From positions 1 through 48,833 of IMG/VR virus record IMGVR_UViG_3300016667_000424: a stretch of 48,833 nucleotides of DNA; one strand, 5' to 3'. Origin of the DNA: a virus. Its lineage: Duplodnaviria; Caudoviricetes. Under the pieces are notes generated by a model. That model did no database searches, was not told the DNA's origin, and saw nothing but the letters and a program-made list of their open reading frames with translations. Shown in pieces: positions 1 to 46,222 of the stretch; within the stretch, counting starts at the first letter, position 1; each line of letters starts with the position of its first letter. Both the position numbers and the translations under genes were made by a program.

Positions 1-198
1 CCGCATAGCCATGTGTCTTGTCATACAGCAACGAGACGAGCAGACCCTCAGGAGCGTCCTTCATCTTGGCCATACGCTTCCTCATGTCGTCGGCATCATT
101 TACGTTTCCGAACGTCGCATCCATCGACTGCTGGCTTCCAGCGTTGTTCCTATACTCGCTGGCGATATGTTCGATGGCCCTGCCGAAGCTGGTCTTCT
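1..198. repeat. Terminal direct repeat, left copy (circular-assembly overlap)
   Basis: Identical to 48636-48833 except A27 vs G48662; lies inside a coding frame. Confidence 0.97.
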
Positions 199-3100: not shown

Positions 3101-6100
3101 CATCGCAGGAGCGGAATCGTCAGTCGCCTTGGTAAGTGCATTGTCGATAGCACCGAAGACGTTCTGCACCATCTTGAGCGTACGGCTTGCGTACAGCATC
3201 TTCGACGCGACGAAGTCGATGTTGTGAGGATTCCTGATGACCTGATTGAGGCTCTGATTGGTCAGCTTCTCGTAGTGTGGTTGCCACACCTTCCTGCCCT
3301 GAAGCGGGTAGAAAACGTACAGGTAATCGAATAGCTCCTTCTTGGTCAGGTTGTTCTTCCTGTTAGCGTACAGGAACTCGGCCATGCCAGTCGCCCTGAG
3401 CTCGTTCTTGGAGACAGTATTGGCCATGAGCAGGTCGAACCACTCAAGTCCGGTACGGACTTCCTTGACCCTCTTGTTCTTGTCCATGCCCTTGATGATG
3501 GCGTTGACCATCTTCGAGATGAACTGAACAGGGCTTCCGCCGATGGCGAAGGTGGACCTATGTCGAAGGATGGACTCGAGCTCAGACTGGCTGTGGTCTG
3601 CCAAGCTGAGGCTGATTCGCTCCTGCTTTGGGGCCTCCATAGTAAGGACATCTCCCTGCCTGAGCAGGCTGGCGACAGCCTTGGCCGCTTCTTGGGTATC
3701 GAAGGCTTTGCCTAGGTTGCCGACGCCATACTTCTTTCCGGCGCCCCACAGGTGGTTTCCGTACTCGCCGACATCTCCCGGCTCAACGTAAAGGCGGGTG
3801 CTTTGCTGGACCTGAGCAGACATGCCTTTTGAGTTTCCAGACGACTCGACCCTGAGCGAGTCCCTGTTCGGAGTAGCCTTGGCCACTTCGGCTTGGATGT
3901 TGCCTGCGGAAATCTTGTCTGCGAGAGCGTTGGCTTCTGACTCCGTGTTGAAGTTCCTGACCATTCGCTTGACCTGCTTCTTTCCGTCGGTTCCGACAGG
4001 GCCGAACTCGTTCCATGCGATTGTCCAACGCTTCTGTGAGTTCTTGAAGACAGTAAGGTTCAGGGAGTCGCTGGTGTCCCAAGAGTAATGCTTGAGGTCG
4101 CTTCGTCCGGGGAACATGGCCTCGATTGCCGCGGACCTGTCTCCGTACATGGCGAGAGACCTTTCGCTGTCTGGCAGGAAGTATCCGGATTCGCCCGACA
4201 TAATCCTGTGGAACGCAGAGGTGAGGTCTCCATGGAAGTTCGGATTGACGGAATTGACGGACCTAGCGGCCGTTTCCATCATGGTCACGATGTTGCCTTG
4301 GGTGGTAGCCGTGGAAGACTGCATGCCCATCAGCTGTAGCTTCGGGTTGACAATTTCTTCCCGCTCGAAGCTTTCCCTCATCGTATTAAGCAACTTTAGG
4401 TGAGCGTTCTTCTCGTCTTGGTAGTAGGTGAGCCTTTCGATGTGGGTGGCCAGCACAGGGCCGTCCATGCCGAACTGGACTGGAGCTCCACGCATCTTCG
4501 CGTAAGGGCCAGTCACGGACATGGCCGAAGCGTAGTGATTGAGGATTGCGGTATTGAAGTCCTCAATCTTCGCATTGGCAGGAAGCACGAACGTGAAGTA
4601 CGCGAAGTCCTGAGAGATGTCGTGCATCACCTCGTCGGCATAGGCCGCGAGCTGAAGCGCTTCCTCGGGGCTGGCAGGAATGTTTCCTTCGATTAGCTGA
4701 GACAGGCGAGCCCTGACATCTCCGGACATTTCCCTGACATACTTGGGCCTCATGGAGGCACCGCCGACTAGCTTGTTGTGCGTCCTTCCTCCGAGGAAGA
4801 TGTCCCCGTTGAGAAGCTTATGGACTCCCTTCAGGTAATCCCTGACGCCGACGTCATCGAGGCCAGAATACCCTCTGGCGACATTGAGGAACGGGAGCTG
4901 TTCCTTGGTGTTTCCACCGCCAAGGGCCTTGCTCATGCCGAAGATGGACCTTCTGGCTAGGGACTGTGAATAGGCCGTATCGTTGTTGGCGTCCCAGCCG
5001 ACGGCCCTGAGGAGAGGGATGCCGACTGCCGGGTTCTGGATGTCGGAGTCATGGACGATGTCGTAAGTCGCCGTGATGTTGGTGTCCGGAGAGAAGTTCA
5101 CCAAGATTCGTCCGTCCTCAAGACGCTTCCAGCTGATTCCGATTCTGCCGTAGTCCTTTTGGTGAAGCTGGGTGCCGAAGCCCGTGGAGCCTGCCCTGCT
5201 CATGACCTTGCCGATGTGGGACTGCTTGGACATGATGACGTTCCTCCTGTCTTCGACGGACTTGATGGACATCATCGAAGGATGCGGAGCGGCGGTCAGG
5301 TTAAACCTAGCGGCCGGGGTAGAGACCTCCTGCTTGCCTAGCTGTTTGGCTACGGAAGCGATTCGGTTGGTGATTAGGCTACGCTTGATTGCGCTCTTTA
5401 CGACTGTGCCGACGCTGGGGACGTTCAGAGAGCCAGCTCCGGAGCCGCCAACCATGTAATCGGAATCGGTGTAGACGCCGCGTCCGTTAGAATCGCTGGT
5501 CTTCAACCTGAGCACTCCATCGGAATCCTCGGAGAACATTCCAGCGAAGGTAAGATGCTCCGTGGTGTTGTGATGTGCCTGATTGATTGCATCCAACACA
5601 GTAGCGCCTTCGACGGCATCAGCCATGATTTCAGGAGACCTGTTCATGACTAGGTCGAACGTGTCGTCCTGACCGAACATTGTCCACTCAATCCTAGAAG
5701 TGGCGGCGGAGTACTTGGCAGTCGGGCTAGGTCCGTAGGCAGTATCGAGATACATGCCGACGCCTTCCCAAGAGCCATTGGACATTCCCGGAGTGATTGC
5801 GGGGTGATGCCTATAGGTGGACAGCTTGGCTCCGTACATTGGGACAAGCAAATCAGGGAACTCGGTATCAGTCCTGCTCGTCATGATTGGCGAGTCCATG
5901 ATGTTGATGTTGCGGGCTTGGAACGGCCTGCTGTTGTATCTGCCAGTCTGGGCGAGCGGATAGGACTTAGCCCTCCTGTCCTTCATGGCCTGAATGGAGA
6001 CGGCCATGCCAATCCAGAACTCGCCGCTTTCGTCGGCCATGGCGGATTCCATGAGCTTGGACAGCTCGGTGGAAAGGTATCCCGTGCCGACCATGTCAAT

Positions 6101-9100
6101 CTTGCTAGCCAGAGCGGAGTGCTGACCCATCAGGTGGTCGAGACCCATGGCAGAGCCGAAGTTAAGGGCTCCCTTCATCGAGTAGCCGAAGTTGGCCGGA
6201 AGCTGGTTGTTCTTTGAGAAATCGACGCCAGCGACGAGACCCAGCATGGTCATGATTCCAGACGAAGCCATCTGGGAGGAGGTCTCATGGGCGAGCATGA
6301 AGATGCCCTGCTTGTCGATGTTCTTAATCCAGTCCTTGGCCACCAAGGCGATTTCTTCCTTTGATGCTCCCCTCTCGATGGCCTCCATGACGGCAGGATA
6401 CATCTCGTTGAAGAATCCGAAGTTGGTAAGAGCGACCTTACCTTCGGGGGTAACGTTAGGAATGCCGACCTTCAGCTTGCCGAACAGGTGAGGCATGGCG
6501 ACGGCACCAAGCGTCGCATTGGTGACATGGACCGCGCTCTCAGAAGCGAAGATTGTGGACTTGTTCTTAGAGATGACGGGCTGTGCCATCTGGATGTTTT
6601 CCTGTCCGAGCAGCGACATGATTCGCCCAATCTGGGCCTGAAGGAACGCGCTGTTGTTGTTCCTGTCCGGATTCTCAAGCATCATCAGTCCCATTACGGA
6701 CTGAACCGCAAGGACGTTGCCGCCCAAGTAATAGGCCATTGGTCCGTTGCTGAGAGAGACGGCGGAAGTCTTGCTGTTGGGAGCGTACTTCTCAAGGTAC
6801 TCGACAAGCACTTCTGCCCTATCAAATCCTCCGACAGAAGCTTCTAGGTTGGCCTTGAACTGCTCGGGATTCGCATGTGCGTCCTCAAGCCTGAAGGCCT
6901 TGGGCCTGAGCATGCTGAACAGGCCGTGGTTGACAGTATTCTCAAGGTTGTGGAATGACCTGTTGTAGGCCGTGATTGCCTCGACTGGGATTCCTCGACC
7001 TGCGACATTGACCGGGAACGAGTTCATTCCCGTGACGTCGGCGTTGTCAGGGTCTAGGTTGATGATGGCTTTTCCGTCTGGCGCGACCATGCCGAAGACT
7101 CCGGTGAGGGACAGGCCTCTGTTCCTGACCCTGTCGGACGAAAGGAAATCGACGATTTCCATGTTGTGACTCGGAGACAGCTTCTTGCTGTAGACGGACT
7201 TGTCTGCGGCATCGTTGGTAAGCAGGGTCTCTTCCCAGACCTCGTAGATTTTGGAAATGAGAGCGGTCTGAGCGGAAAGCTTTCCGATTCGCTCCTTCAT
7301 GTCATCCCTGATGGGCTCCATGAAGGCGATTCGTTCCGCGAGCGGCATGGCCTTGATTTGATTTACGCCGTTGCCTACGAACCTGTCGTCTCCGACGTCC
7401 TCGAAGTACCTTTGCAGGTCATCCAAGTCCAAGTTATTGATGTCATCCTCGTTACGGATGACCCTTTCGACGTCGGCCAGAAGGGATTCAAGGTAGCGAA
7501 CATTGCCAGAGATGTCGTTGACCGAACCCTCAAACGCCCTCTTGAGCTCGGAATAGCTTCCGTCCCTAGAGAACTTGTAGGGCATGACGAGAAGCTCCTC
7601 CTGAGGGGTGGAGTTGACGTCGTAGTATACGGCGGATTGGCTGACGTTATCGAGGCCAGAGTTGACTGCGTTGGTCGCAATCTCGGCGTTCATGTTTGCT
7701 CCGGGCCTGATGACCTCAGAGACGTCAGCGCTAGCAAGGGTGACGGATTCTTCCGCGTGGTGGATGTACGCACCAAACAGGGAGCTAATCATCGTCGGAA
7801 TGAATCCGGTATGGCTTACTGCCCTTTGTCCGCTCTTGAGTCCGAACACGGAATCATTGCTGGCTTTGAGTCCGTACCTCTGAATCATCGTGGACGCAGA
7901 GCCAGAAGAAATTCCGAAAGTTTCTCCTACGCTAGAGAGGGTGTCGTCTCTCATTCCGACAGCGAGAGCGTCAGAACCGACGGCCACCCTGAGGGTTGAT
8001 TCTTCGAGCTCAGAGAGAAGGACAGAGTAAAGCTTCCTAGAGAACTGCTTGTCTTCTTCTGCGAGCCTCTGGATTTTGTCCACCGCGGCCTTGATGACCG
8101 GACCGATGAGAAGGGAAGCCCTCCTCATCCTTTCGTTCAGCCTTCCGACCATGTCGGGATTGATGATGACCTTGGGAAGGTTCTGGACGAACTTGGAGCT
8201 ATCGAACCTCTGCCTGAATTCGGCCCAAGCATCCTCAGGGCACCAAGAAGGCCTGCTCAGTCTGAAGCTAAGCTTGTTAGCGGTCCACTTGAACCTACCA
8301 AGCTCCATCTCAGCGCCGCTAGCCCTAGCAGGGTAAAGTTCTCCGATGCCAGCCGCCATGGCCGAGCCGACGTTGTTGTCGTCGGTGAGCTTGGTGACAA
8401 TCTTCCTGAAATCAGCCTGAGAAATGGTCCTGTTTCGCATGTCGGGGATTGCCCCGATTCCGCTCGTCACAGCCGCCGTGCTGAAGGTGATGTGGTTGAA
8501 GGCCAGAATGTTCAGCAGGTCGTTCTTGGTAAGGACCATGTCCTTCATCTTCGAATCGACCGCGTCAAGCATGACGGCCTTTGCGGACTCTTCCGTAAAC
8601 ACGCCGAGCTTCATCAGCTCAGACCTGATTTCTCCGCCAAGAACCATCGGCGGGAATCTGTCAGAGTTGATGATGTCGATGACGCCGTTACCGACGGACA
8701 AGACGTCTTCGGATTCGATGACGAAATTGGCCAGCTCAGCAAAGTCCTTGATGGTGTAGGTCCTAGGTTTCCCGCTTGCCCCGGTGGTCTCGGGCATGCC
8801 GAGGAACTGGGCGTTCGGGTCGCCATAGCTCGGGTACTTGTCGAATTGAGACCTGTTCTTGGCGACGAGAGCTTCCTTGGTCTTCTCGTAGTCTCCCTTT
8901 ACGATGTAGCGACCCGTGGTAAGAACCATCCTGCCATTGTCGTCGATTTCCCAGCCTTCCTGACTGATAACGAACCTGCCGAGGTCCCTGAGTTCGTTGT
9001 TGGCCTTGCCCATGAAGAACCTGACGACTGACATGAATCCGAGCGTTGCGGAGGCGGGGTTGTCCGCCGGGTCAGCGCCGATTCCAGCGATGGAGTTCAT

Positions 9101-12100
9101 CAGGGTGGAGCCGCCAAGCTCCCTAGCCCTGACTCCAGCCTTGTTCATAGACGAGTCGATGATTTCAAGGACGGAGCTGTTCTCTGCCAAAGCCCTGTCC
9201 TTAATCGCCAGTTCCTCCTGAGTGAGACCACGCCTCTGCATGGTGGTGAACGCCTGACGCTCGACGGGCTCGATGACATACTCCATGGCCCGGTAGTGCC
9301 TGAACGCCTTTGCGAGTGCGACAGTCCTGCCATCGGGATGCCCCTTGATGATGTCATCATAGCTGGACACCATGCCCATTGCATCAAAAGCGGCCCTGAA
9401 CTCCTTGTTCTCGGCCATGACAGACAAGTACCTAGGATTAGCGTCAGCGACGGCCTCCTTGAACTCGTCAAACTGCTTGAAGACCTTGTAAGCGTCCTCG
9501 GTGGTGTCGATGTTCGACGCTTGCCTGTGGAGGAACTCGGCCTTCCTGTAAAGTTCGTCAGAGATACGTCCTGCGGTGTGCTCGAAGGTGACGAACTCCA
9601 TCATGTTCCGCGTAGCGGTCTTCATGAGGGGTTTTGCGTGAAGACGCAGGCTGGCAATCACGGGAGCGTCCGGGTGGTCCACGAAGTTCTGGATGACCTT
9701 CAAGGCCGCACCAGCGCCTCCGTACTTCAGGTCGCCATACCCGATAACAGGTGCCTTTTGGATTCCAAGGAGCTTGGCAAAGCTTGCCTTAACGTCCTCA
9801 GGGTTGACGCCCTGAATGGACCTATGCTCTCCGAGAATGTTGCCAGACCTCTGCAGGATGTGCTGGATTTCATGAACGAACAGCCCGGTGATGTAGTTAC
9901 TTCCAGAGTACCTGCTATTCAGGCTTTCGGTATCGATTCGGAACTTGTCAGCTTCAGGAGGAAGGCCGAGCTTTTCGTAGGCAAGAGCCCTAGCTCCGAT
10001 GTTGATTAGGAAGGTGCCGTCGCTCCTTCTGCCAGCCTGAGCCCCATGGATGTCGATGAAGTTGACATCGACGTCCTTCAGCCAAGGGAAATACTTGTAG
10101 AGAAGGGTGTGACCGAAGACATTGCCGAGCTTGGTGGTGCCCAGAATCTGGTCCCTAGGCATGAAGACCTCTAGGCCCGGAGTCGTGAACCTACGCTCGA
10201 CCTCCTTCTGGTAGTCGGAGAAGGCCTTTTGCGGGTCAGCGCTGAAGGCAAACGGGAGCATGTGAGGCTCTCCGTTGGACGCGGAATAATCGACGAAAGA
10301 ATCCCTGTCGGACAGCTCGAAGATTTCGGTATCGACGCCTTTAATGGTCACACGCTTCAGCAGGCCGAGCTTGCTGAGTTCTTCCTTGTGTTCCTTGCTG
10401 AGTCCGGAGGCATCGGCAATCGAGTTCATGGTCTTAGGCTTGTTCCTAAGAGACTCGAACTGTCGGGCCTGAGTGGAATGTGCTTGGTTGATTGCCTTGA
10501 CTAGGTCTTTTGCCTTTTTGAGCTGGGCAGGGCTGGCACCGAACTGAGCGTAGTACTTACGCTCCATGATGGTGTCGAACGCCTTGCTGATTGGAGACTC
10601 ATCTCCGCCAATCGCCCAATACCTCTGCATCTCAAGGGTCCAGTTGGCGACTGCTTCGTCCATGAACCTAGACGCGAGCTCTTGAGGCGTAGCGTTTGCG
10701 GTACCGATGGAATTGATTCTTTCGTCAGGATTCCTAGCCTTTTCGATTGAATAAACGCCCTGAGCGATGCCAATTAGGCCCTTGTCTCCATTGGCGATTA
10801 CCTCGCCGTAGAGACCTTCTGCGTAGGCAAGCCTATCCTTCGGGGTTCCCTGAGTCTGCTCGAATGCGCTGGCAAGCCTGTTAAGTGCTGGCTCCAGCTC
10901 CGGGTTCATCGACATGATTGCGGCGTCAAGCACCCTGAAGTGCAGTCCGCCTTCGATGTCCCTGACGCTGAGCTTCTTCTTTTCAGGGAGAAGGATTGTG
11001 CTGACAAGGGCTCCGTAGGGGGAGTTGCCCTTATTCATCATGGCATCGGACGGCTGGGCATACTTGGACGCCACTTCGGTTCCGCCATAGACGCCTGAAC
11101 GCATGGCCATCTTGCCCGGCATGGCAGTTGCAACCACGCCCTTAGAAGAGACGATTTGCGTCACGCCCCTATCTGCAAAAATCGCCAATGGGTTGGCATT
11201 TGCAATCTTCAGCTGTTCCAAGGTGTACTTGGCGCTGATGTAATCATGGCTCGCGGAGGTGGCGACAACTTCGCCGCTGGAACCTTTGGTGACCTTCTGT
11301 ACGATTGAATGAACAGATTCGTTCATCACTCGTCCGACCTTCTGGAACAAGGATTCCCTGATTTTTTCCGGGGCGACGTTAATTACCTTGAGGGCTTCGT
11401 CGATTTTGCTGACGCCGTTGACGTCCTTGAACGCTAGCGCGTAGCTGACTCCTCCGTCTGCCGAAGGATACGGAATCCAGACGCTGTCATCGTTGAGGGC
11501 GGAATCCACATAGGAGATTGTGGCAAGAAGTCCGTCCTTGATTGAGTGGAAGTTGTTGTCGAACCATCGGGGATTCTGCGGCCTGACCTCAGCAAATCTT
11601 TGCAGGATAACCTCAGACCTGCTCGTAGGCTTGAACCCTTTCTTGAAATTAGAGGCAAAATCAGAACCGCTCGTAGACTTCTCAAGAATCGACTTAGCCT
11701 GCTCGGAGTCGCCGAGCATGAATGCGTTCTCAGAGTTGTCGTTGGACGGATTCCTATTCCTCTCGGACAGGCTTCTCTTGATTTCGGCCTGAATCTGTCC
11801 GACTTCCTGCTTCCTGTCCTTGACGTACTTTTCCGGGTCTTCCGATAGGGCTTTTAGCGTAGACGCCAGCTTGTAATGTGCGCCAACGACATCCCTGCCT
11901 TCTGGTGCATGATTGAGGGTGGGGAGCCAATAGGACATGTTTTCCCCGTACGGACTCATCGCCATGCTCATCGCCTCGATTGAGGACTCGATGGCGTAGT
12001 TGAGCATCTTGGACTTTGCCTCATCGTTGACTCCGTACTTCTCGATGTGGTCGTAATCGATGAGGATGGACATCACTCCAGTCTGAGCATGCCTCTGCAC

Positions 12101-15100
12101 GGAGAAGAACCTTCCGTTAGTATCAAAAACGGGACCGAATGCGTTCTTCTTGCTCTCTACGGCGACAATAGGGACGATGGAAGGGTCAAACCTTTCGACC
12201 CTGTTGCTTTCATTCCACTCCTTGAGCTTCTTCAGGCTGGATTTGCTAAGGATGTCATTGAGTGTGATGGCCCTCTTGAGCTTCGTGATGACGTTCCTGA
12301 TTGAGTCAAATCCGCCAATGTACTCAGGATACCAGACGACATCGCTGGTCGGGTCTAGGGAGGCAAGGGACTTCATACCCTTAGCCCTTCCTTCGAGCAT
12401 CCTCTGGGTGTAGGTCTGGTGCGTGATGCGTCCGACCTCGCTCATGTACTGGAGCCTCTGGCTCCTATTCATGTCAGCCCACTCGATTTCCGTGGGCTTA
12501 GGCATGAGGTCAGCAAGGTCGCGCTTGGCCAAGTCCTTCTCGACGGCGATAGCCGCCTTGGCGAAGTCCGCAAACATGCCTACAACACCGCCGAATGGGC
12601 TGAAGACCTTCCACTTAGTTCCGGTCTTGATGACTTCGTAGCCCTGTCCGTTGACAAGCCTTCCGTCGGACATTCCGACCTTCTCGAAGCCAGCGATGGA
12701 ATAGTTCCTGCGAAGGCCTTCATAGGACCTGCCGTGGTGGTACGGCATAGGCTTGCCCGTGGTCAGCTCAAGGCCGACCAGAAGCTCCATCCTCATGCTG
12801 TGGATGGGGTAGTTCGGGTTTTCGTGACTGCTGGAGTAGCCTTCGCGAGGAGAGTTGATGTAGGACTCGTCCTTACGGATGGAGCCGCCGAAGGTTTCGT
12901 ACAGGATGTCCCTGACCTTTTCGCCCTGACCGGGGAAACGCTTGTTGAACAGCTCGGCGGACGGGACGCGACTTCCAGCGTCCTTCATCATGTTGACGAG
13001 GTATTCGTCGAAAGCGTTGTTGTAGGTGTCCAGCGAGACAAAGGTGTTTCGGACGTCAGGCCTGCTCCAGAGCTTCATCTTGCGACGATGGATGGCCATG
13101 TAGTCCACGACAGTCATCAGCATGCCGCCGCGAGGAGTGCGGAGCTGTTTGCCAGCCGCGTCGGTGGTCTTGAGCGTCAGCTTCATCTCAAAGGGCACAA
13201 AGACCCTATGAGTGACAGAGACGTCGTTGCCGAACAGCCTCTGGAAGAAGCCGTTCTTGATGGTTCGCTGGCTGTCGCCCCAGTAAGTGCCCGTGAAGAT
13301 GTTGCTGGTGGCGAATCCGGTGGACTCCCATCGGTTGTATCCGTCCCTGACGACCTTGACGGCTCGCGCGGTCTCGGGGTCGATTGCCCCAGCCGCCTGC
13401 ATTGCGTCGAGCGCCTCATCCTTGATTCGCAACATGTCAACGCTCTGGTTGCCATGCTCGTCGAGGGCGATTTCCGGCCTAAGAGACTCGTCGAGATTCT
13501 TGAAGACCTCGAAGGCGTCCGTAGCGGCCTTCGTGGACATGTCGTTCAGTTCCTTGGTGCCCTTCAGCGTGGCACCGGCCTTGCCGATGTTGAAAAGGAA
13601 TTCCTTCCTGTGGAGCTTGGCTTCAGCGAGCTGTTGCGCGGGGCTCAGCCTGTTGATGGCCTGAGCGTCATGACTGGTCGCATCCCTGACCATCGACTGA
13701 ATGAGCTGGTCGAACTCGGGGGCCCTACGCCAGACGCCGTCGTCGTAGGCTTCGGCTTGAATGGTGAGCTTGCCGTGCATGCCCTTGTTGTTCGGGTCAT
13801 CGATGGCGAAGTCTCCGTACTTGGCCCTGACGCCAGCCATCTCAAGGTCCGTGACCTTTCGAGCGAAGCGCTCGTTGTAGATGCGTTCGAGGTTGATGCG
13901 GAAGGGTTTTAGCTCATCGGGCAGGATGAGATTCTGAAGGTTGGTATGAATGAACAGGGACTCGGCGTATCCGGCGATACCCTCTTCAAACATGAACTTA
14001 ATGGAGTCGAACTTGCCGACAGCGTAGGCGGCAGGAATCTGCTTTCCTTCGGCGTCTGGCATGCTGTGCAACCAGAAAGCGGCCGCACCATTGAAGTTGG
14101 CGCTTTCCCTCAGGTCCCTAAGCTGTTGAAGGTAAAATGCCTTGCTTCCATCCCTGTCCGTGTTGCCGCCTTCGTAGATTTCCTTGGCCTTCTTATTGAC
14201 TTCCGTGACAAACGCAGGGTCGTCTTTGCTGAGTCTGGTAGAGATGTCCTCGACTGCGAGTTCAAGCGACCTGCGTCGAGCCGCTCGCGAAGCAATGATT
14301 TCGTCGCTGAAGATACCTCCGTCTGCCTTGTCTCCGAAGAAACGCCTGAGATGCTCGCCGAGCTTTCCCTTTTCCCTTAGTGAGTAGCTGATGACGTGTC
14401 CGAGAACTTCGTGGCCAAATTCTTGGAACCTATGCTTTTCCCTGTTCAGGAACAGGACAGGAACCATTCCGTCCTTGCCCTTCTTGACCAGAGTGAAGCT
14501 ACCGCCAGCGTCGTCAGAACCGGAGAACTTGGATAGCTGATGCGGGTCGATGCCGTGGCTGACAAGGAGAGCCTCAAGGCTGGCCTTGTTTCCGACGTGG
14601 GTAATCAGGTTCTTCTTGTCCGCGGAGTCGAGCGACTGCCAGAGAATCTGGGCGACGCTACGGGTCTGGGACATGACCCTAGTGGACTTGGTGGCGTCGG
14701 CATAGGAAGTGGCCTCCCTGATGAACGAAGCGTACGACGGGTTAACCTTTTCGACCTGAGGAAGGTAGCCTTCGTCGAAGTTCTTGATGTGGATGTCGTG
14801 GGAAAGGCCTCCGTTGACAAGAGACCAGCCATGCCTGAGGGCTCCGCTGTATCCGCCCCACATCATGCCTTGGGCCGCACCGCCGACAGCACCACGCTCC
14901 TTGTCGGTCATGTATCCGAGGAAGGAGAAGGTCAGGGCATCCTTGTAAGCATGCTTCAGGGACGCTGTGGACAGCTGGATGACCGGGTCAACGACAGTAT
15001 TGAGCATCTTCGCCGTGACTTTTGCGCTCGGCGACAGGAGCGGATTGGCCGCTACGGACTCAAGGATGCTGAGAGAGGTAGGAGTGCCTGCTTCGATTAC

Positions 15101-16258
15101 GCCAAAGCTACGCATGGTAGCCTTGTTTCCGATTTCCTGAAGCAGTTCGGAGGTGGTCCTAAGACCCATCGAGCCGAGGTATCCGACAGTCTGCCTAGTT
15201 CCTCCAGCGACACCTCCGAGGGCCACGGAAGCGTCGGTTGCGACAGTCTCTGCGGCGTTGCGAAGGTAGCCAGACGAGAACCCGGTCCTGCTGGAAAGGT
15301 TGTCGATAGTGCCACCGATTGCGGAGCCAGCGATGTTGGCGGGAATCTCAAGTGCCTTACCGATGCCGCTGAGCGTACCGCCTACGGCCCTCTGGGTGAC
15401 CTTCTGTGCGAAGTTGTCGAACCTCTGGGTGGCAGAGGCGAGCGTGTTGCCAATCTTGCCGAACATGCTGGTCTTGTTGGCAAGACGTGCGGACTGAACG
15501 GCTTTTGAGCTGGCGGCGGCGAGGCCGAGCTCAGCGGAGGCACCGCCCGTGAAAGGAGCGGCGATGATGGAGGGAAGCTCCATGCCGATGAAAGACATGG
15601 CATGGGCGACCTTAGGATTGATGAAGGACCTGACCTTCTTGGCGGTGTCCTCGTCCATGTCCATGTACTGCTCAAGGACGGATTCATCGCCCTGCATCAT
15701 CCTCATGGAATGGTAGTTGAACTTACGGGCCTGATTCCATTGCTGGGCTTCTTCCCTCCAGTTTTGGGACGGCTGTCCGCTCATCAGACCTTTGATGACA
15801 GACTTGAAGCCGAACATGACGGAGTCCGGGTTCTCGGACTCTGCGGCCATGCCCCATAGGTCACGGATGGACCTTACGACGCCTTCTGCCGTGCTAGCGA
15901 CTCCCTTTACGAGGCCACCTTCCGCGATGCCCTCGACGAGGTTTCCGGGGATTGCGGCGATTTCACCACCAGCATCGGCCAAAAGTTGGCCGTAGTCGGT
16001 CACCCTCTTGCTGTAGCCGCGCTTGATTGCGTTCCAATGCTCCTCAGCGTCAGGACGGGACAGGTCGATGCCCTGACTCGGGTCCTCTTCGTAGAACTTG
16101 ATTACGTCCTCGTCGGTCTCTTCCTTGGCGAGGTGAAACCCTGCGGGCCCCTTGCTGATTGAAGGGCCTAGGTCTAGGCTCTTGCCAGCTTGGTTGAGGA
16201 GCATGGCATACCTAGCGGCCTCGTTAAATTCAGAGCCGGGGGGAGTAGAGGGTTCCAT
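1..16258 (-). CDS. Giant polyvalent virion/ejection protein, about 5,717 aa in total; continues at 48635..47740 across the circular junction
   Basis: ATG at 16258 overlaps the upstream TAA (TAATG) and begins MEPSTPPGSEFNEAARY. The ORF track has no terminated ORF in this frame from 16258 to 1, and every segment I hand-translated was open. The frame is in phase with 47740..48759 through the 198-bp repeat. Motifs: APFTGGAS, GHEVLGH..EEGIA, FELSD..GHTLLYKYFPWL..HEIQHILQ, GHLRVTD..FIEELQSD. Confidence 0.92.
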   Translation of the reverse strand, partial: MEPSTPPGSEFNEAARYAMLLNQAGKSLDLGPSISKGPAGFHLAKEETDEDVIKFYEEDPSQGIDLSRPDAEEHWNAIKRGYSKRVTDYGQLLADAGGEIAAIPGNLVEGIAEGGLVKGVASTAEGVVRSIRDLWGMAAESENPDSVMFGFKSVIKGLMSGQPSQNWREEAQQWNQARKFNYHSMRMMQGDESVLEQYMDMDEDTAKKVRSFINPKVAHAMSFIGMELPSIIAAPFTGGASAELGLAAASSKAVQSARLANKTSMFGKIGNTLASATQRFDNFAQKVTQRAVGGTLSGIGKALEIPANIAGSAIGGTIDNLSSRTGFSSGYLRNAAETVATDASVALGGVAGGTRQTVGYLGSMGLRTTSELLQEIGNKATMRSFGVIEAGTPTSLSILESVAANPLLSPSAKVTAKMLNTVVDPVIQLSTASLKHAYKDALTFSFLGYMTDKERGAVGGAAQGMMWGGYSGALRHGWSLVNGGLSHDIHIKNFDEGYLPQVEKVNPSYASFIREATSYADATKSTRVMSQTRSVAQILWQSLDSADKKNLITHVGNKASLEALLVSHGIDPHQLSKFSGSDDAGGSFTLVKKGKDGMVPVLFLNREKHRFQEFGHEVLGHVISYSLREKGKLGEHLRRFFGDKADGGIFSDEIIASRAARRRSLELAVEDISTRLSKDDPAFVTEVNKKAKEIYEGGNTDRDGSKAFYLQQLRDLRESANFNGAAAFWLHSMPDAEGKQIPAAYAVGKFDSIKFMFEEGIAGYAESLFIHTNLQNLILPDELKPFRINLERIYNERFARKVTDLEMAGVRAKYGDFAIDDPNNKGMHGKLTIQAEAYDDGVWRRAPEFDQLIQSMVRDATSHDAQAINRLSPAQQLAEAKLHRKEFLFNIGKAGATLKGTKELNDMSTKAATDAFEVFKNLDESLRPEIALDEHGNQSVDMLRIKDEALDAMQAAGAIDPETARAVKVVRDGYNRWESTGFATSNIFTGTYWGDSQRTIKNGFFQRLFGNDVSVTHRVFVPFEMKLTLKTTDAAGKQLRTPRGGMLMTVVDYMAIHRRKMKLWSRPDVRNTFVSLDTYNNAFDEYLVNMMKDAGSRVPSAELFNKRFPGQGEKVRDILYETFGGSIRKDESYINSPREGYSSSHENPNYPIHSMRMELLVGLELTTGKPMPYHHGRSYEGLRRNYSIAGFEKVGMSDGRLVNGQGYEVIKTGTKWKVFSPFGGVVGMFADFAKAAIAVEKDLAKRDLADLMPKPTEIEWADMNRSQRLQYMSEVGRITHQTYTQRMLEGRAKGMKSLASLDPTSDVVWYPEYIGGFDSIRNVITKLKRAITLNDILSKSSLKKLKEWNESNRVERFDPSIVPIVAVESKKNAFGPVFDTNGRFFSVQRHAQTGVMSILIDYDHIEKYGVNDEAKSKMLNYAIESSIEAMSMAMSPYGENMSYWLPTLNHAPEGRDVVGAHYKLASTLKALSEDPEKYVKDRKQEVGQIQAEIKRSLSERNRNPSNDNSENAFMLGDSEQAKSILEKSTSGSDFASNFKKGFKPTSRSEVILQRFAEVRPQNPRWFDNNFHSIKDGLLATISYVDSALNDDSVWIPYPSADGGVSYALAFKDVNGVSKIDEALKVINVAPEKIRESLFQKVGRVMNESVHSIVQKVTKGSSGEVVATSASHDYISAKYTLEQLKIANANPLAIFADRGVTQIVSSKGVVATAMPGKMAMRSGVYGGTEVASKYAQPSDAMMNKGNSPYGALVSTILLPEKKKLSVRDIEGGLHFRVLDAAIMSMNPELEPALNRLASAFEQTQGTPKDRLAYAEGLYGEVIANGDKGLIGIAQGVYSIEKARNPDERINSIGTANATPQELASRFMDEAVANWTLEMQRYWAIGGDESPISKAFDTIMERKYYAQFGASPAQLKKAKDLVKAINQAHSTQARQFESLRNKPKTMNSIADASGLSKEHKEELSKLGLLKRVTIKGVDTEIFELSDRDSFVDYSASNGEPHMLPFAFSADPQKAFSDYQKEVERRFTTPGLEVFMPRDQILGTTKLGNVFGHTLLYKYFPWLKDVDVNFIDIHGAQAGRRSDGTFLINIGARALAYEKLGLPPEADKFRIDTESLNSRYSGSNYITGLFVHEIQHILQRSGNILGEHRSIQGVNPEDVKASFAKLLGIQKAPVIGYGDLKYGGAGAALKVIQNFVDHPDAPVIASLRLHAKPLMKTATRNMMEFVTFEHTAGRISDELYRKAEFLHRQASNIDTTEDAYKVFKQFDEFKEAVADANPRYLSVMAENKEFRAAFDAMGMVSSYDDIIKGHPDGRTVALAKAFRHYRAMEYVIEPVERQAFTTMQRRGLTQEELAIKDRALAENSSVLEIIDSSMNKAGVRARELGGSTLMNSIAGIGADPADNPASATLGFMSVVRFFMGKANNELRDLGRFVISQEGWEIDDNGRMVLTTGRYIVKGDYEKTKEALVAKNRSQFDKYPSYGDPNAQFLGMPETTGASGKPRTYTIKDFAELANFVIESEDVLSVGNGVIDIINSDRFPPMVLGGEIRSELMKLGVFTEESAKAVMLDAVDSKMKDMVLTKNDLLNILAFNHITFSTAAVTSGIGAIPDMRNRTISQADFRKIVTKLTDDNNVGSAMAAGIGELYPARASGAEMELGRFKWTANKLSFRLSRPSWCPEDAWAEFRQRFDSSKFVQNLPKVIINPDMVGRLNERMRRASLLIGPVIKAAVDKIQRLAEEDKQFSRKLYSVLLSELEESTLRVAVGSDALAVGMRDDTLSSVGETFGISSGSASTMIQRYGLKASNDSVFGLKSGQRAVSHTGFIPTMISSLFGAYIHHAEESVTLASADVSEVIRPGANMNAEIATNAVNSGLDNVSQSAVYYDVNSTPQEELLVMPYKFSRDGSYSELKRAFEGSVNDISGNVRYLESLLADVERVIRNEDDINNLDLDDLQRYFEDVGDDRFVGNGVNQIKAMPLAERIAFMEPIRDDMKERIGKLSAQTALISKIYEVWEETLLTNDAADKSVYSKKLSPSHNMEIVDFLSSDRVRNRGLSLTGVFGMVAPDGKAIINLDPDNADVTGMNSFPVNVAGRGIPVEAITAYNRSFHNLENTVNHGLFSMLRPKAFRLEDAHANPEQFKANLEASVGGFDRAEVLVEYLEKYAPNSKTSAVSLSNGPMAYYLGGNVLAVQSVMGLMMLENPDRNNNSAFLQAQIGRIMSLLGQENIQMAQPVISKNKSTIFASESAVHVTNATLGAVAMPHLFGKLKVGIPNVTPEGKVALTNFGFFNEMYPAVMEAIERGASKEEIALVAKDWIKNIDKQGIFMLAHETSSQMASSGIMTMLGLVAGVDFSKNNQLPANFGYSMKGALNFGSAMGLDHLMGQHSALASKIDMVGTGYLSTELSKLMESAMADESGEFWIGMAVSIQAMKDRRAKSYPLAQTGRYNSRPFQARNINIMDSPIMTSRTDTEFPDLLVPMYGAKLSTYRHHPAITPGMSNGSWEGVGMYLDTAYGPSPTAKYSAATSRIEWTMFGQDDTFDLVMNRSPEIMADAVEGATVLDAINQAHHNTTEHLTFAGMFSEDSDGVLRLKTSDSNGRGVYTDSDYMVGGSGAGSLNVPSVGTVVKSAIKRSLITNRIASVAKQLGKQEVSTPAARFNLTAAPHPSMMSIKSVEDRRNVIMSKQSHIGKVMSRAGSTGFGTQLHQKDYGRIGISWKRLEDGRILVNFSPDTNITATYDIVHDSDIQNPAVGIPLLRAVGWDANNDTAYSQSLARRSIFGMSKALGGGNTKEQLPFLNVARGYSGLDDVGVRDYLKGVHKLLNGDIFLGGRTHNKLVGGASMRPKYVREMSGDVRARLSQLIEGNIPASPEEALQLAAYADEVMHDISQDFAYFTFVLPANAKIEDFNTAILNHYASAMSVTGPYAKMRGAPVQFGMDGPVLATHIERLTYYQDEKNAHLKLLNTMRESFEREEIVNPKLQLMGMQSSTATTQGNIVTMMETAARSVNSVNPNFHGDLTSAFHRIMSGESGYFLPDSERSLAMYGDRSAAIEAMFPGRSDLKHYSWDTSDSLNLTVFKNSQKRWTIAWNEFGPVGTDGKKQVKRMVRNFNTESEANALADKISAGNIQAEVAKATPNRDSLRVESSGNSKGMSAQVQQSTRLYVEPGDVGEYGNHLWGAGKKYGVGNLGKAFDTQEAAKAVASLLRQGDVLTMEAPKQERISLSLADHSQSELESILRHRSTFAIGGSPVQFISKMVNAIIKGMDKNKRVKEVRTGLEWFDLLMANTVSKNELRATGMAEFLYANRKNNLTKKELFDYLYVFYPLQGRKVWQPHYEKLTNQSLNQVIRNPHNIDFVASKMLYASRTLKMVQNVFGAIDNALTKATDDSAPAMQTAVQTLKDMHLSALTDAYEKVMNKDIMTSLVKELGLEGAESSVVVMRILDELQKNPDRILQFSAPLLETYRLNINSSVAKAKLENLASLQGIEIEIGDPLTMDSTQLSASGLHLSDWDTAIEEYHDRAAGAQDKYGYNKGDDHGYAGYTSGLGEHVYTALFTEVTPDSTAFNDYIEKLEGAMNAATDPAEKAKFRSAIDAANHVYKVRKAIGENYAKYMTSHKGAPRDKGYNLLGHLRVTDATVPTALPVLSTPASIFEQLKSYGRERLEEAQIPVSFIEELQSDTYQRKTFGPTLDPEYTLYATFKEIEEIPGLRAQAKQITDKLAAMRVGEGHKDLYLNTYNGGSPARYVLNNYFYGAYAHHEITNSGPFTRYMLSQLGGSEWKPSGKFIPVPQNLQTNYGLPASIPDVYPSGPLTQETLLKYRATTLHPIEGMNPEVLRQFLMPANLAVPGFGNLKFGNFIPSGSSERHVAGLAKLFLAMSPEFIGVARELAELSGNDYSAVEQFKGKIDFDMLAKNWTAKLRVLAKDPKLREDFFRQFGDHKQIRVNLNRLVQMTNIMETMSTIDAEEAAFQVRNSEMSGSSDNSHRYVSINPDDANFDKKFIDRKQVFAIAPDEKVVEFVAKIGSRIGKVGPDATGIKPLFRKYKLHKDKTLKSPRGIVATTLAFASDALGVTQEEVAQAMLKDDPSVVKFTDKDLVDFAHGRTKLNDNKDILRWLDEMMDGNYDTKHEFVNRFGYMFRATDYEHDPANMRISAMYDSIQHNANTMLGRMMEAVSPFVATVWSSYNTTSELEQLKAQQADLAKKAGLKLDEDGDIQTYNLPDSIPHGEDNAYRPILVNAYVMNALAKRHRALVIADARHHRGRYGSVGYVNHAVNLGGGRMFMVGTRNADLSSAAYILDVVRKRGMYNNLIDRIRSQNLGFEHQVEIDGTGKSLGSWLIEAGHKVIDEFPEAFAEGMSRESEKTSFGRAIEHIASEYRNNAGSQQSMDATFGNVNDADDMRKRMAKMKDAPEGLLVSLLYDKTHGYA

Positions 16259-38315: not shown

Positions 38316-38964
38316 GGTGTGCGTAGATGAGGTTCTCGTACCGGGTGCCTGTGGCCATCTTGCGTGATGCCATGGTGCGGGTGTAGCCGACAGAGGTGAG
38401 CGGCTTGGTGACGTAGGTATCGAATGTGACCATGCTAGGGCAATGGTCTGTGAACGTCCTACGCAGGCCCTGCATGCGTGGTATCTTGGCGAGTATGCTC
38501 GGGCCTAGTGAGTAGCATGCGTAGATGAGCTGAGGGCTGGGAGGAGCTCCGTGGCTGGTCCGAAATTTGTCCACTATGGCCCTGATGAACGTAGTTGCAT
38601 ACTCTCGGGCCACTCTGGGCTTGAACGCATCATGGTAGGGATACACAGGCAGGCACAGCTTAGCCCTCATGTCGCTGATGTCATTCCACGCACTCTGGTG
38701 TATCTGAAATGCACCTATGGCCGGGCCATCGAGATGTGTCTTGTCGCCGATGGCGTTCGGCTGGTTGTCTGATTCGATGAGTGCAATGGCGTGCGCTAGC
38801 GCTCGCTCATCTGCGTGAATGCTAAGATGCATTGGCTTGCGTTGGCTCGGTATCCGGGTTGGGGTATGGCTCATGGCAACGCACAAACCAAAAGGGAAGA
38901 AGAACAACGACGCGACCAATCCAGCTCGCAAGCAACTGGGCAAGAGTGGAGTCGAGGCGTTCAT
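38269..38964 (-). CDS. Lysozyme-fold muralytic enzyme (transglycosylase / i-type-like), probably with a signal peptide
   Basis: AIALIESDNQPNAIGD..AIGAFQIHQSAW; hydrophobic LRAGLVASLFFFPFGLCVA near the N-terminus; start uncertain. Confidence 0.75.
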   Translation of the reverse strand: MNASTPLLPSCLRAGLVASLFFFPFGLCVAMSHTPTRIPSQRKPMHLSIHADERALAHAIALIESDNQPNAIGDKTHLDGPAIGAFQIHQSAWNDISDMRAKLCLPVYPYHDAFKPRVAREYATTFIRAIVDKFRTSHGAPPSPQLIYACYSLGPSILAKIPRMQGLRRTFTDHCPSMVTFDTYVTKPLTSVGYTRTMASRKMATGTRYENLIYAHHDSLRQLGIPLLWLE

Positions 38965-39325
38965 TGATAAGACGAAGATGTACGACAATGACGAGGTGAG
39001 CAAGATGCTAATGCTAGAGCCGCGCGAGTGGCTGGACTACGCATGCATCGGCGTCGCCGAAGAAGCGAACGGCACATACAGAGCCGTCTACGACCTGAAC
39101 ATTCTTGAGTACGCATATGCACTCTCGTTCGCGTATGATGAATTCAAGTACAAGAGTTTCGACAAGCTCATCATCGCGATGTCGCCTGAGCATGTGGACA
39201 TGGCCGAGGAGTGGGTCTCGTATAATACAATCAGAGGGGCGGGCTACATGGGCCCTACAGCACCCCTATTCGTGCGTTCCCATGCTGGGGACGACTGGCA
39301 AACCGGGGAAAAGTGGGGTAAATAG
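38873..39325 (+). CDS. Conserved phage hypothetical protein (150 aa)
   Basis: LDYACIG..AVYD...AEEWVSYNTIRGAGYMGPTAPLFV pattern of a common small phage family; start could instead be 38978. Confidence 0.7.
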   Translation: MATHKPKGKKNNDATNPARKQLGKSGVEAFIDKTKMYDNDEVSKMLMLEPREWLDYACIGVAEEANGTYRAVYDLNILEYAYALSFAYDEFKYKSFDKLIIAMSPEHVDMAEEWVSYNTIRGAGYMGPTAPLFVRSHAGDDWQTGEKWGK

Positions 39326-39463
39326 GCAACTGGATTGCGTTGTATATCAGCGACTTACGTAAATCACATAAATTTCTGACTACATACGCTTGACCCACGA
39401 CAATCAGAGCACATGGTGAATGGAGTCAGCTGATGAGGCTGACGCTGTTCATTCAAACATTTC

Positions 39464-39536
39464 GGTGGGGCGATACGGGCTATCAACTAGGATTCACATT
39501 CCTAGAACAAGGGTTCAAGTCCCTTCCTCACCACCA
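39464..39536 (+). tRNA. Atypical tRNA-Val(CAC) with a shortened D-arm and encoded CCA
   Basis: Acceptor GGTGGGG/CCTCACC + ACCA; T-arm AAGGG-TTCAAGT-CCCTT; anticodon arm CTAGGA-TTCACAT-TCCTAG; D-arm GATA-CGGGC-TATC. Confidence 0.7.
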
Positions 39537-39540
39537 CTTC

Positions 39541-39611
39541 GGGGATGCTTGGTAGGCCTGTTCAACCTTACATCGACACACGCTCGGGTTCGATTCCCGA
39601 CATCTCCACCA
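39541..39611 (+). ncRNA. 71-nt tRNA-Ala / tmRNA-TLD-like RNA with no D-stem and no mRNA-like domain
   Basis: GGGGATG/CATCTCC + ACCA with G3:U70; T-arm TCGGG-TTCGATT-CCCGA; centre is a single GTAGG/CTTAC hairpin. Confidence 0.7.
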
Positions 39612-39615
39612 CTCT

Positions 39616-39761
39616 GGCGCGACTTAACACCGGGCCTTGGCTACCATCCTCAATTACGAGGTGCCTAAACGCCCCTAGTGGGGCAACTCTTTACGAGGTC
39701 TTGAAACGTGTATGGTAGCACGTCCAAGCGTAAGTCGGTCTAGCATTGCCGAGCCTCACCA
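39616..39761 (+). ncRNA. Unidentified structured RNA of about 146 nt ending in ACCA
   Basis: Nested pairings CTTGG/CCAAG and CTACCAT/ATGGTAG; hairpins CCTC/GAGG, GCCCC/GGGGC and TCGG/CCGA. Confidence 0.55.
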
Positions 39762-39802
39762 CTCTCGCCCGCAAGGGCACAACCACAACACACAACACAC
39801 AC

Positions 39803-39892
39803 ATGCACATCAGCATCAACACGCTCATCGCCATCGCGGCGGCTCTGGACCTCGCTTCCTTCATCGGAATCATCGTCCTCATCGCCCGATAA
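39803..39892 (+). CDS. Small hydrophobic peptide (29 aa, MHISINTLIAIAAALDLASFIGIIVLIAR)
   Basis: AC-rich leader, typical codon usage, one TM-like segment. Confidence 0.65.
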   Translation: MHISINTLIAIAAALDLASFIGIIVLIAR

Positions 39893-39943: not shown

Positions 39944-40858
39944 ATGAGTAACATCATCACCAACATCAACCACGCCGTCGAGGTCAACTCGTTCAGCATG
40001 GTCAACACCAAGTCCGTCGAGAGCCGCAAGGCCCTCTACGACAGCATCGAGCGGGACCTGAAGGCCATCTTCAGCGAAGTCACCGGGTTCGACTTGAGCG
40101 AAGGCTACTACCTTCACTTCAACAAGAACGATGACGGAAGCTGGAAGACCGACCTGCATGTCAGCATCCGACAGGATGATGCGTACTGGGAGTCCACGCT
40201 TCGCCCGAGGAACAATGACCTTGAAAACTGGTGCATCCTGCCTGAGGTCGAGCACCTGCACGACAAGGGCCGAATCGCCAACTATCCCTGCCACCTGTGC
40301 TCCATCTTCAGCATCGAGGCCGAGGTCGGTGACCGCTGGTCCAAGAAGACCAAGCTGAGCGTCGGCACCGAGTACGGAGCCCACCATTACATCACCAACG
40401 AAAATCGTGATGCCATGAAGAACGGAAGCGACAAGGAGTATTGCCCTCGCCTTAACTCGTACAGCGCGTTCAAGCAAATCAAGGGCTCGCAGGAGTACGG
40501 CTACAACCAAATCAAACTGGATAAGGCCTACCGACTGTTCAAGTTCTACGTCCAGCAGTTCTACGCCCGCATCAAGGAAATCAGCGAAGGCTACTCGCTG
40601 GCCAAGGCCAAGGCCGAGCCGCACAACGAGTACCTCAGCAAGGTCAAGGCCTTCGACTCGAACCTGAAGCAACTGAACAAGCAACTGTTCGACAAGTTCA
40701 ACCCTGAAGCGAACGACAGGCAGTATCGCCCGGACTACGTCACCATCGGAAGCGAACGTATCTGGCTCATGAACGCCGACCTCCAGAGCCCCGACAACAT
40801 CGACATCGCGGCTCAGATTCTCGAACTCATCTCCAAGCTGAAGTTCAAGAAGGAGTAA
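39944..40858 (+). CDS. Early hypothetical protein (304 aa)
   Basis: Strong codon bias; hairpin plus AC-rich leader before the ATG. Confidence 0.85.
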   Translation: MSNIITNINHAVEVNSFSMVNTKSVESRKALYDSIERDLKAIFSEVTGFDLSEGYYLHFNKNDDGSWKTDLHVSIRQDDAYWESTLRPRNNDLENWCILPEVEHLHDKGRIANYPCHLCSIFSIEAEVGDRWSKKTKLSVGTEYGAHHYITNENRDAMKNGSDKEYCPRLNSYSAFKQIKGSQEYGYNQIKLDKAYRLFKFYVQQFYARIKEISEGYSLAKAKAEPHNEYLSKVKAFDSNLKQLNKQLFDKFNPEANDRQYRPDYVTIGSERIWLMNADLQSPDNIDIAAQILELISKLKFKKE

Positions 40859-46120: not shown

Positions 46121-46127
46121 ACCCTCT

Positions 46128-46199
46128 GGCCTCATCGTTCAACGGATAGGACAGGCGTTTCCTAAACGCTAAATCTAGGTTCGATTCCTAGTGGGGCCA
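46128..46199 (+). tRNA. tRNA-Arg(CCU), CCA not encoded
   Basis: Acceptor GGCCTCA/TGGGGCC, D-arm GTTC/GGAC, anticodon arm GGCGT-TTCCTAA-ACGCT, T-arm CTAGG-TTCGATT-CCTAG. Confidence 0.95.
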
Positions 46200-46222
46200 T
46201 AATTTTTCACCCGCACACGCAC

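Follow-up and report, generated by a model that had tools for sequence, protein, structure and literature searches.

A probable cassette of exchangeable structured RNA genes in a phage tRNA-operon slot

The window analysed here, meaning the whole 48,833-nt stretch of DNA, is an entire 48.8-kb phage contig (IMG/VR record IMGVR_UViG_3300016667_000424). Its minus strand encodes terminase, major head protein, RusA and an SLT lysin, and its plus strand encodes exonuclease VIII, an O-like initiator, DnaC and Erf; the RNA cassette described below stands at the start of this plus-strand gene block. Elsewhere in the window, an open reading frame of at least 5,419 amino acids (2–16258, minus strand) had no Pfam match in either half, and ARAGORN called a separate canonical tRNA-Arg(CCT) at 46127–46200 (plus strand), downstream of the Erf gene. 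A terminase search of IMG/VR returned 80 loci, mostly 77–97% identical, and no relative among 185,579 genomes; the nearest deposited phage is 32% identical. The runs listed for it, aquatic or wastewater metagenomes with small shares of this sequence, hint weakly at a freshwater habitat for this virus of bacteria. From the upstream gene that served as the family anchor to the first protein gene past the cassette, the locus comprises the following features:

38873–39325, plus strand: upstream gene used as family anchor, conserved in the alignment and across loci
39345–39357, plus strand: IHF-consensus-like DNA site upstream of the promoter (family motif)
39390–39417, plus strand: predicted early promoter, TTGACC (39390–39395), 16 nt, CATGGT (39412–39417) (family pattern)
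39425–39457, plus strand: leader hairpin (39425–39443), then a boxA-like signal (39447–39457); predicted Nus antitermination site of rRNA-leader type
39464–39536, plus strand: U1, aberrant tRNA with an ACCA end (ARAGORN Val(CAC); fold z −2.8)
39541–39611, plus strand: U2, alanine-type acceptor stem and T arm with a mini D hairpin and an interrupted arm (Rfam match at the ends, pair counts, inner helices)
39616–39684, plus strand: module A, three-hairpin RNA whose last hairpin is preceded by an A-rich linker (17 homologues, not in Rfam)
39695–39761, plus strand: module B, three-way-junction RNA (39695–39757) followed by ACCA (20 homologues, not in Rfam)
39767–39778, plus strand: short GCAA-capped hairpin closing the cassette, then an A/C-rich leader (sequence)
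39803–39892, plus strand: 29-amino-acid hydrophobic open reading frame, the first protein gene past the cassette (translation)

Pfam, PHROG and Foldseek searches with the upstream gene gave no match. Its alignment led to 50 metagenome and 63 viral loci, from which we kept 48 regions, the window and 47 relatives, at a profile score of at least 80 and after removal of near-duplicates (more than 98% identical over the first 450 nt). These regions come from related phages, and the homologue counts given below are therefore not independent events. An open reading frame related to the 29-amino-acid one starts downstream of the cassette in 46 of the 48. For the proteins neighbouring the cassette, Atlas and Foldseek matches were uninformative. 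A 304-amino-acid early open reading frame (39944–40858, plus strand) found no match in family and Atlas searches; with only three terminase-anchored relatives among the matches listed, it is a variable accessory gene.

An initial annotation made from the sequence had proposed that a long hairpin is followed by three ACCA-terminated units, none of them a canonical tRNA, forming an early cassette of tRNA mimics. The unit coordinates, the ACCA ends and the CTTC/CTCT spacers are exact in the sequence, and the GCAA hairpin is present, with counterparts seen by eye at the same place in many relatives. What had been taken as a third unit (39616–39761) is two RNAs, A and B, because an insert of approximately 95 nt splits them in locus L221, their order is reversed in L223 and each occurs without the other; the cassette thus holds four units. 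They are always on the sense strand, downstream of the promoter and ahead of the first early genes. The idea of an early cassette holds up, its RNA genes being conserved, covarying and tRNA-operon-like, with compensatory changes in all four units and none fully covered by an Rfam family. Its extension to tRNA mimicry by every unit does not, as neither A nor B contains a T-loop or a D-arm and A, in addition, lacks an acceptor-like end. A protein-coding reading of the cassette was rejected, the two overlapping open reading frames being broken in the closest relatives.

Upstream of the units, we identified a compact leader. The promoter pattern, TTGMM-17-YANNNT, occurs in 42 of the 48 regions against a shuffled mean of 0.9, an enrichment that is partly circular because the pattern was derived from the same regions; a generic sigma-70 scan did not call the predicted promoter. 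The site at 39345–39357 resembles the IHF consensus; when one mismatch is allowed it recurs in 46 of the 48 regions, against an average of 5.3 in shuffles. The long hairpin of the initial annotation (39417–39451) does fold (z −3.7), but in the RNA probably only 39425–39443 does so, because the left arm overlaps the predicted −10 box and the right arm is the boxA-like site. We infer that the leader consists of a short hairpin and boxA, a layout that it would share with the Escherichia coli rrnB leader, which served as the control. Boxes with at most one mismatch are found in 22 of 48 regions (shuffled, 0.7), and with at most two in 38 (shuffled, 6.5); the copy in the window has two mismatches to GYTCTTTAANA, the consensus given in PMC5725501, a level that 22 other plus-strand sites in the window also reach. 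The predicted arrangement, a hairpin and then a GYTCTTTAANA-like motif shortly after the promoter and before untranslated RNA, resembles that of rRNA-leader Nus antitermination. It differs in the two mismatches, and the consensus is gamma-proteobacterial and may not be that of the host.

U2 shows the clearest conserved signature. We aligned 14 distinct homologues (15 regular-expression matches minus L286), which are 70–78 nt long and contain no tag reading frame. G1–C72, G2–C71, G3·U70, A73 and a CGACAC motif are invariant in all 14, acceptor pairs 4–7 change on both sides, the T stem is 100% paired at four pairs, and 4 homologues, including the copy in the window, have a UUCGA T-loop and the other 10 a UGCAA one. 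G3·U70 is the mark recognized by alanyl-tRNA synthetase; both elements of alanine identity tested, G3·U70 and A73, are present in 14 of 14. The terminal loop of the interrupted arm, by contrast, differs among homologues and no anticodon is fixed, which argues against decoding. Overall, 97.4% of cells pair, a level reached by none of 500 shuffles; two type-count measures were not above shuffles. The registers of the two inner helices were chosen after inspection: across 13 sequences (L294 omitted), the 4-bp helix flanking CGACA, anchored by eye, pairs in 22 of 26 variable cells against 14.8 in shuffles, and the mini D hairpin in 37 of 39 cells against 29.3. The copy in the window has a C·C mismatch in the first of these helices.

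The best Rfam match of U2 is tmRNA, both in the window (39 bits against a cut-off of 47, at the ends only) and at six homologue loci, with scores of 25–39 bits across the window and these loci. A standard or permuted tmRNA was rejected on that score, on 15.8 bits (E 2.9) for the permuted model and on the failure of ARAGORN to find a tmRNA. The tRNA-like domain (TLD) of tmRNA is charged with alanine (PMC8012679), and forms without a coding sequence, reduced to the TLD, are known, including that of mycobacteriophage DS6A; a molecule similar to the DS6A RNA is reported to inhibit tmRNA (PMC4131195 and PMC11915505). U2 might specifically be a TLD-only tmRNA that has diverged and that would block trans-translation by titrating SmpB, with the other units as unrelated passengers, an explanation that we regard as unlikely. 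The Rfam matches speak for it, given that the known DS6A TLD itself scores only 43.2 bits, as does the TLD-like order of acceptor, short D region, helix, 0–2-nt connector and T arm; against the U2 model, the true TLD of L286 reaches 45.3 bits, although L286 was found through the CGACAC pattern, so that the shared motif is not independent. However, both TLD-only controls, DS6A and L286 (59.1 bits in Rfam), keep a D-loop GG..UCGA 5′ of helix 2 and a 3–4-nt, GAC-type connector. U2 lacks this stemless D-loop, and its connector after the 4-bp helix (anchor by eye) is 0–2 nt, for which reasons it is not to be filed as a TLD-only tmRNA. Further, the middle of U2 in the window is not aligned to tmRNA, CGAC lies 3′ of the arm, the D hairpin is supported and UGCAA predominates in the T-loop; a CGAC/UGAC remnant of the TLD D-loop motif is seen only in L314, L309, L176 and L294.

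Like the DS6A RNA, U2 is a phage RNA of approximately 70–85 nt with a tmRNA-like alanine acceptor and T arm and without a tag frame. It departs from that RNA in its mini D hairpin, in the invariant CGACAC on the 3′ side of the interrupted arm, in the mostly UGCAA T-loop and in having neither the D-loop UCGA before helix 2 nor the GAC-type connector. Its alanine-acceptor architecture, intermediate between tRNA and the TLD of tmRNA, appears to be undescribed, and U2, judged by its sequence, may work like a TLD-only tmRNA. In IMG/VR, its exact pattern matched 13 stretches, 12 from the family plus L286, and in the genome collection the UGCAA-type pattern was not matched exactly anywhere.

Two further observations concern acceptor RNAs outside this unit. 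First, L286, an unrelated phage contig, carries the 64-nt textbook TLD-only tmRNA used above (1199–1262, minus strand), which adjoins a tRNA-like gene (1289–1414) with a long anticodon-arm insertion. Second, a second alanine-acceptor type, between tRNA-Ala and TLD, is present at L185 (2634–2710), L184, L186 and L234; it has G3·U70, CGACAC before a 9-bp bulged arm that ends in a UGC-bearing loop, with the variable loop absent.

Module A formed three hairpins in 16 of 17 individually folded homologues, and for the inner stem of hairpin 2 there are five sequence variants, all of which pair. In the automatic alignment 96% of cells are paired; only 2 of 11 pairs have double changes and RNAalifold recovers only hairpin 3, making the structure of A less firm than that of B. 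Its pattern has ten matches in IMG/VR, all in family contigs, and a compact copy precedes tRNAs in the more distant L062.

For module B we aligned 20 of 33 regular-expression matches, keeping family cassette copies with clean ends. Paired cells amount to 97.7%, 8 of 13 pairs have double changes, and RNAalifold gives the same three-way junction, with invariant bases GGU, CGYAAG and GCC. Shuffled alignments reached these values in 0 of 500 cases on three of five measures and in 4 and 57 of 500 on the other two; controls slid along the sequence gave 22–49%. The ACCA punctuation that the initial annotation read in the window is correct there and is kept in 11 of 14 distinct copies of U2, but it is not a family rule for B, whose 28 copies end in ACCA in 5 cases and in TCCA in 2. 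This weak NCCA tail makes an RNase P-type release of A and B less certain than that of U1 and U2.

The B model finds tandem pairs and second-site copies, including copies between downstream genes. Outside the family, it also detects a copy in the unrelated provirus L307 (32.8 bits, E 6.8 × 10^−7 for the record, 74% GC), which is intergenic, before an HNH gene and beside another unclassified conserved element. L307 was picked by a B-like pattern, which inflates this score; its stems nonetheless pair through different sequence. The 29 stretches with the B pattern comprise 10 family contigs, L307, two weak matches (L318 and L322, 21 bits) and 16 that the model did not score. In five cultured actinophages that have the sequence neighbouring L307's copy, B was absent within approximately 500 nt of the match.

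A separate conserved intergenic element, ending ...CUACUCCA, was seen at L307 (964–1082, minus strand), L341 (343–481), L342 (501–568), L343 (501–556), L344 (501–536) and L345 (501–535). It is common to the provirus and to cultured Arthrobacter, Rhodococcus and Microbacterium phages, adjoins tRNA genes in two, and is covered by no Rfam family, apart from a tRNA-Sec-like row that overlaps one of its ends in L342. We note it as a candidate RNA in culturable phages.

Comparison with known RNAs, through Rfam for A and B and additionally with the model for B, gave no relative. Rfam, ribozymes and riboswitches included, yielded only sub-threshold, non-significant overlapping rows for them in the window at E ≤ 10, and nothing in 20 loci at the gathering threshold, in 14 loci at E ≤ 0.5 or in L307. 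Hammerhead, pistol and HDV-like ribozymes were rejected by eye against their consensus structures, and had no Rfam match. The best hits of the B model were at E 0.4 in the T4 tRNA cluster, including RnaC and RnaD, and at E 0.077 in E. coli rrnB and ssrA; T4 RnaC was rejected as a relative of B, the two having CGUAAG in common but not the fold. RnaC and RnaD are stable RNAs of the T4 tRNA cluster (AF158101 and PMC9697503), and resemble the present units as structured non-tRNA molecules inside a phage tRNA cluster. They differ in being classed as late and in having no match to the B model, and the content of the present cassette is shuffled among relatives. We found no description of the U2, A or B modules in the literature searched, which included part of a screen of over 10,000 viral RNA candidates (PMC10690425), among whose unnamed candidates A, B or U2 may figure. 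A phage tRNA cluster with extra RNAs and a TLD-like mimic is a known kind of setting; A and B appear to be new motifs, and the U2 architecture, the two modules and the shuffled library appear undescribed.

The slot itself turns over extensively. Of the 48 regions, 19 carry A, 21 carry B, 20 carry U2 and 44 carry a tRNA called by ARAGORN; 19 regions have none of U2, A and B, which are therefore dispensable or replaced. Counted over 900 nt, ordinary tRNAs of 17 anticodon types share the slot, module order and copy number vary, and tandem copies occur. Loci L222, L223, L224 and L174 have a nearly identical anchor gene and different module content; mapped onto a tree of the upstream gene with 47 rows, module content forms clusters, yet requires 12 changes against a minimum of 6. 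Further occupants include module C, a covarying RNA of nested stems in 13 regions (L177, 2893–2973, and 12 others), with double changes at 9 of 17 predicted pairs in an eight-sequence alignment that has one misplaced row, and recurring segments E (8 regions) and D (4 regions).

This turnover bears on whether the units act in cis, as RNase P or RNase E punctuation, as stabilizers or as put-like antiterminators that shape the early mRNA, which we consider rather unlikely. Such a role would suit units that invariably lie in sense orientation ahead of the first early genes under a boxA-like signal, and of which one, B, recurs between genes downstream. A cis-acting cut site would, however, not need the invariant G3·U70, the order and number of the units vary freely with tandem copies, and the B copy of L307, before its HNH gene, sits in a different gene context.

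U1 is the unit for which the denial of canonical tRNAs in the initial annotation has to be divided: ARAGORN calls it tRNA-Val(CAC), and yet it is noncanonical in connector, D-loop and anticodon stem. ARAGORN, folding and covariation support a tRNA-Val cloverleaf with anticodon loop, T arm and CCA, built from a 1-nt connector, a 4-bp D stem, a 5-nt D-loop, a 6-bp anticodon stem and a 3-nt variable loop. The canonical U8/A9 connector (U1 has C8 only), A14, the G18G19 D-loop and the 5-bp anticodon stem are missing. No RF00005 row was returned for U1 in the Rfam search of the window; its homologue in L173 scored 30.4 bits as an Rfam tRNA, above the cut-off of 29. In an alignment of 5 homologues, taken from 6 distinct copies, 10 of 22 pairs have double changes, 4 of them in the acceptor stem, and U1 is maintained rather than decaying, yet noncanonical. 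In architecture U1 resembles tRNA-Pyl and mitochondrial tRNA-Ser(UCN), with a connector of 1 nt, a small D-loop, an anticodon stem of 6 bp and a variable loop of 3 nt. It differs from these in its CAC or CAU in place of CUA, its normal TTC T-loop and one extra connector base.

Two side observations touch U1. L222 (2590–2820) contains three successive Met-like RNAs: a CAU-bearing homologue of U1, a tRNA-like unit that lacks a D arm, and a tRNA-Met of initiator type. Further, a 13-nt stretch of the U1 D/anticodon arm (window 39480–39505) and its partner strand also occur in an otherwise unrelated module of L223 (cassette 429–519), possibly a trace of recombination.

With its anticodon-type loop carrying CAC or, in relatives, CAU, in a slot that otherwise holds normal tRNAs, U1 could be a working aminoacyl carrier: a nuclease-resistant tRNA reading GUG (AUG in relatives), with U2 as an alanine donor for a non-ribosomal transferase. 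A GUGC T-loop, reminiscent of the staphylococcal non-proteinogenic tRNA-Gly, and the documented replacement of cleaved host tRNAs by phage tRNAs would also fit. We nevertheless judge this improbable, since the U1 anticodon stem is only 73% paired among the 5 homologues, the D-loop is reduced, no transferase was recognized among the open reading frames scanned, and A and B are left unexplained. That the units are merely decaying tRNA pseudogenes and chance folds is very improbable, for although single-sequence folding was not significant (z −0.75 for U2, −1.6 for A and −1.6 for B), every unit has compensatory changes and the B model recovers a copy in the unrelated provirus.

Taken together, the units are very probably real, selected and exchangeable structured RNA genes. 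As to function, we tentatively favour, on sequence evidence and at a little short of even confidence, a decoy role in trans for the units as separate early RNAs, alanyl-tRNA synthetase being the enzyme that would charge U2. On this view, a slot for phage tRNA operons holds a swappable set of four genes for structured non-coding RNAs, likely the first to be transcribed from the upstream promoter. Host polymerase would start at the TTGACC/CATGGT promoter, and the hairpin–boxA leader would recruit Nus factors and so allow approximately 350 nt of untranslated RNA to escape Rho. RNase P and 3′ trimming would release the units, as they would the ordinary tRNAs of the same slot. U2 would be charged through G3·U70 and A73 without decoding, and might then tie up a tRNA- or tmRNA-handling protein, either SmpB or a defence effector that recognizes acceptor ends. 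U1 would act as U2 does, or decode poorly, and A and B would expose conserved junction motifs that host proteins recognize.

A decoy role is consistent with the turnover of modules combined with an invariant alanine mark, but rapid exchange would fit any accessory RNA role and not decoys alone. Precedents for it are phage anti-defence tRNAs, RNA anti-CRISPRs and the TLD-only RNA of DS6A. Phage tRNAs are reported to counter PARIS, retron Eco7 and anticodon nucleases by replacing cleaved host tRNAs (PMC11464382, PMC11555353 and PMC10264068); they too are lineage-variable phage genes, and such a role is plausible for the ordinary tRNAs of the slot and for U1. By contrast, they replace a cleaved tRNA in translation, whereas U2, A and B have no fixed anticodon. 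The proposed mode is that of the phage RNA mimics Racr (solitary repeats), pseudo-ToxI and rAcrIIA1, small RNAs that titrate a host defence protein (PMC10651486, PMC3594212 and 10.64898/2026.06.03.729762), from which A and B differ in matching no Rfam family and in that a decoy target is only proposed. A broader version is conceivable, if doubtful: the slot may be an RNA-level anti-defence island of six or more interchangeable folds (U2, A, B, C, D and E), expressed with Nus antitermination of the rRNA type, in which every fold imitates another host RNA–protein interface, with B a new RNA class common to distant phage groups.

Phage tRNA clusters have long been known to hold stable RNAs without known function, such as T4 RnaC and RnaD. 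For several RNAs of the present slot, comparative data now supply folds, invariant bases and natural presence/absence variants, and U2, A and B, all shorter than 80 nt, could be produced and tested independently of the phage. Should they prove to be decoys, each of these RNAs would point to a host RNA-binding defence or translation factor.
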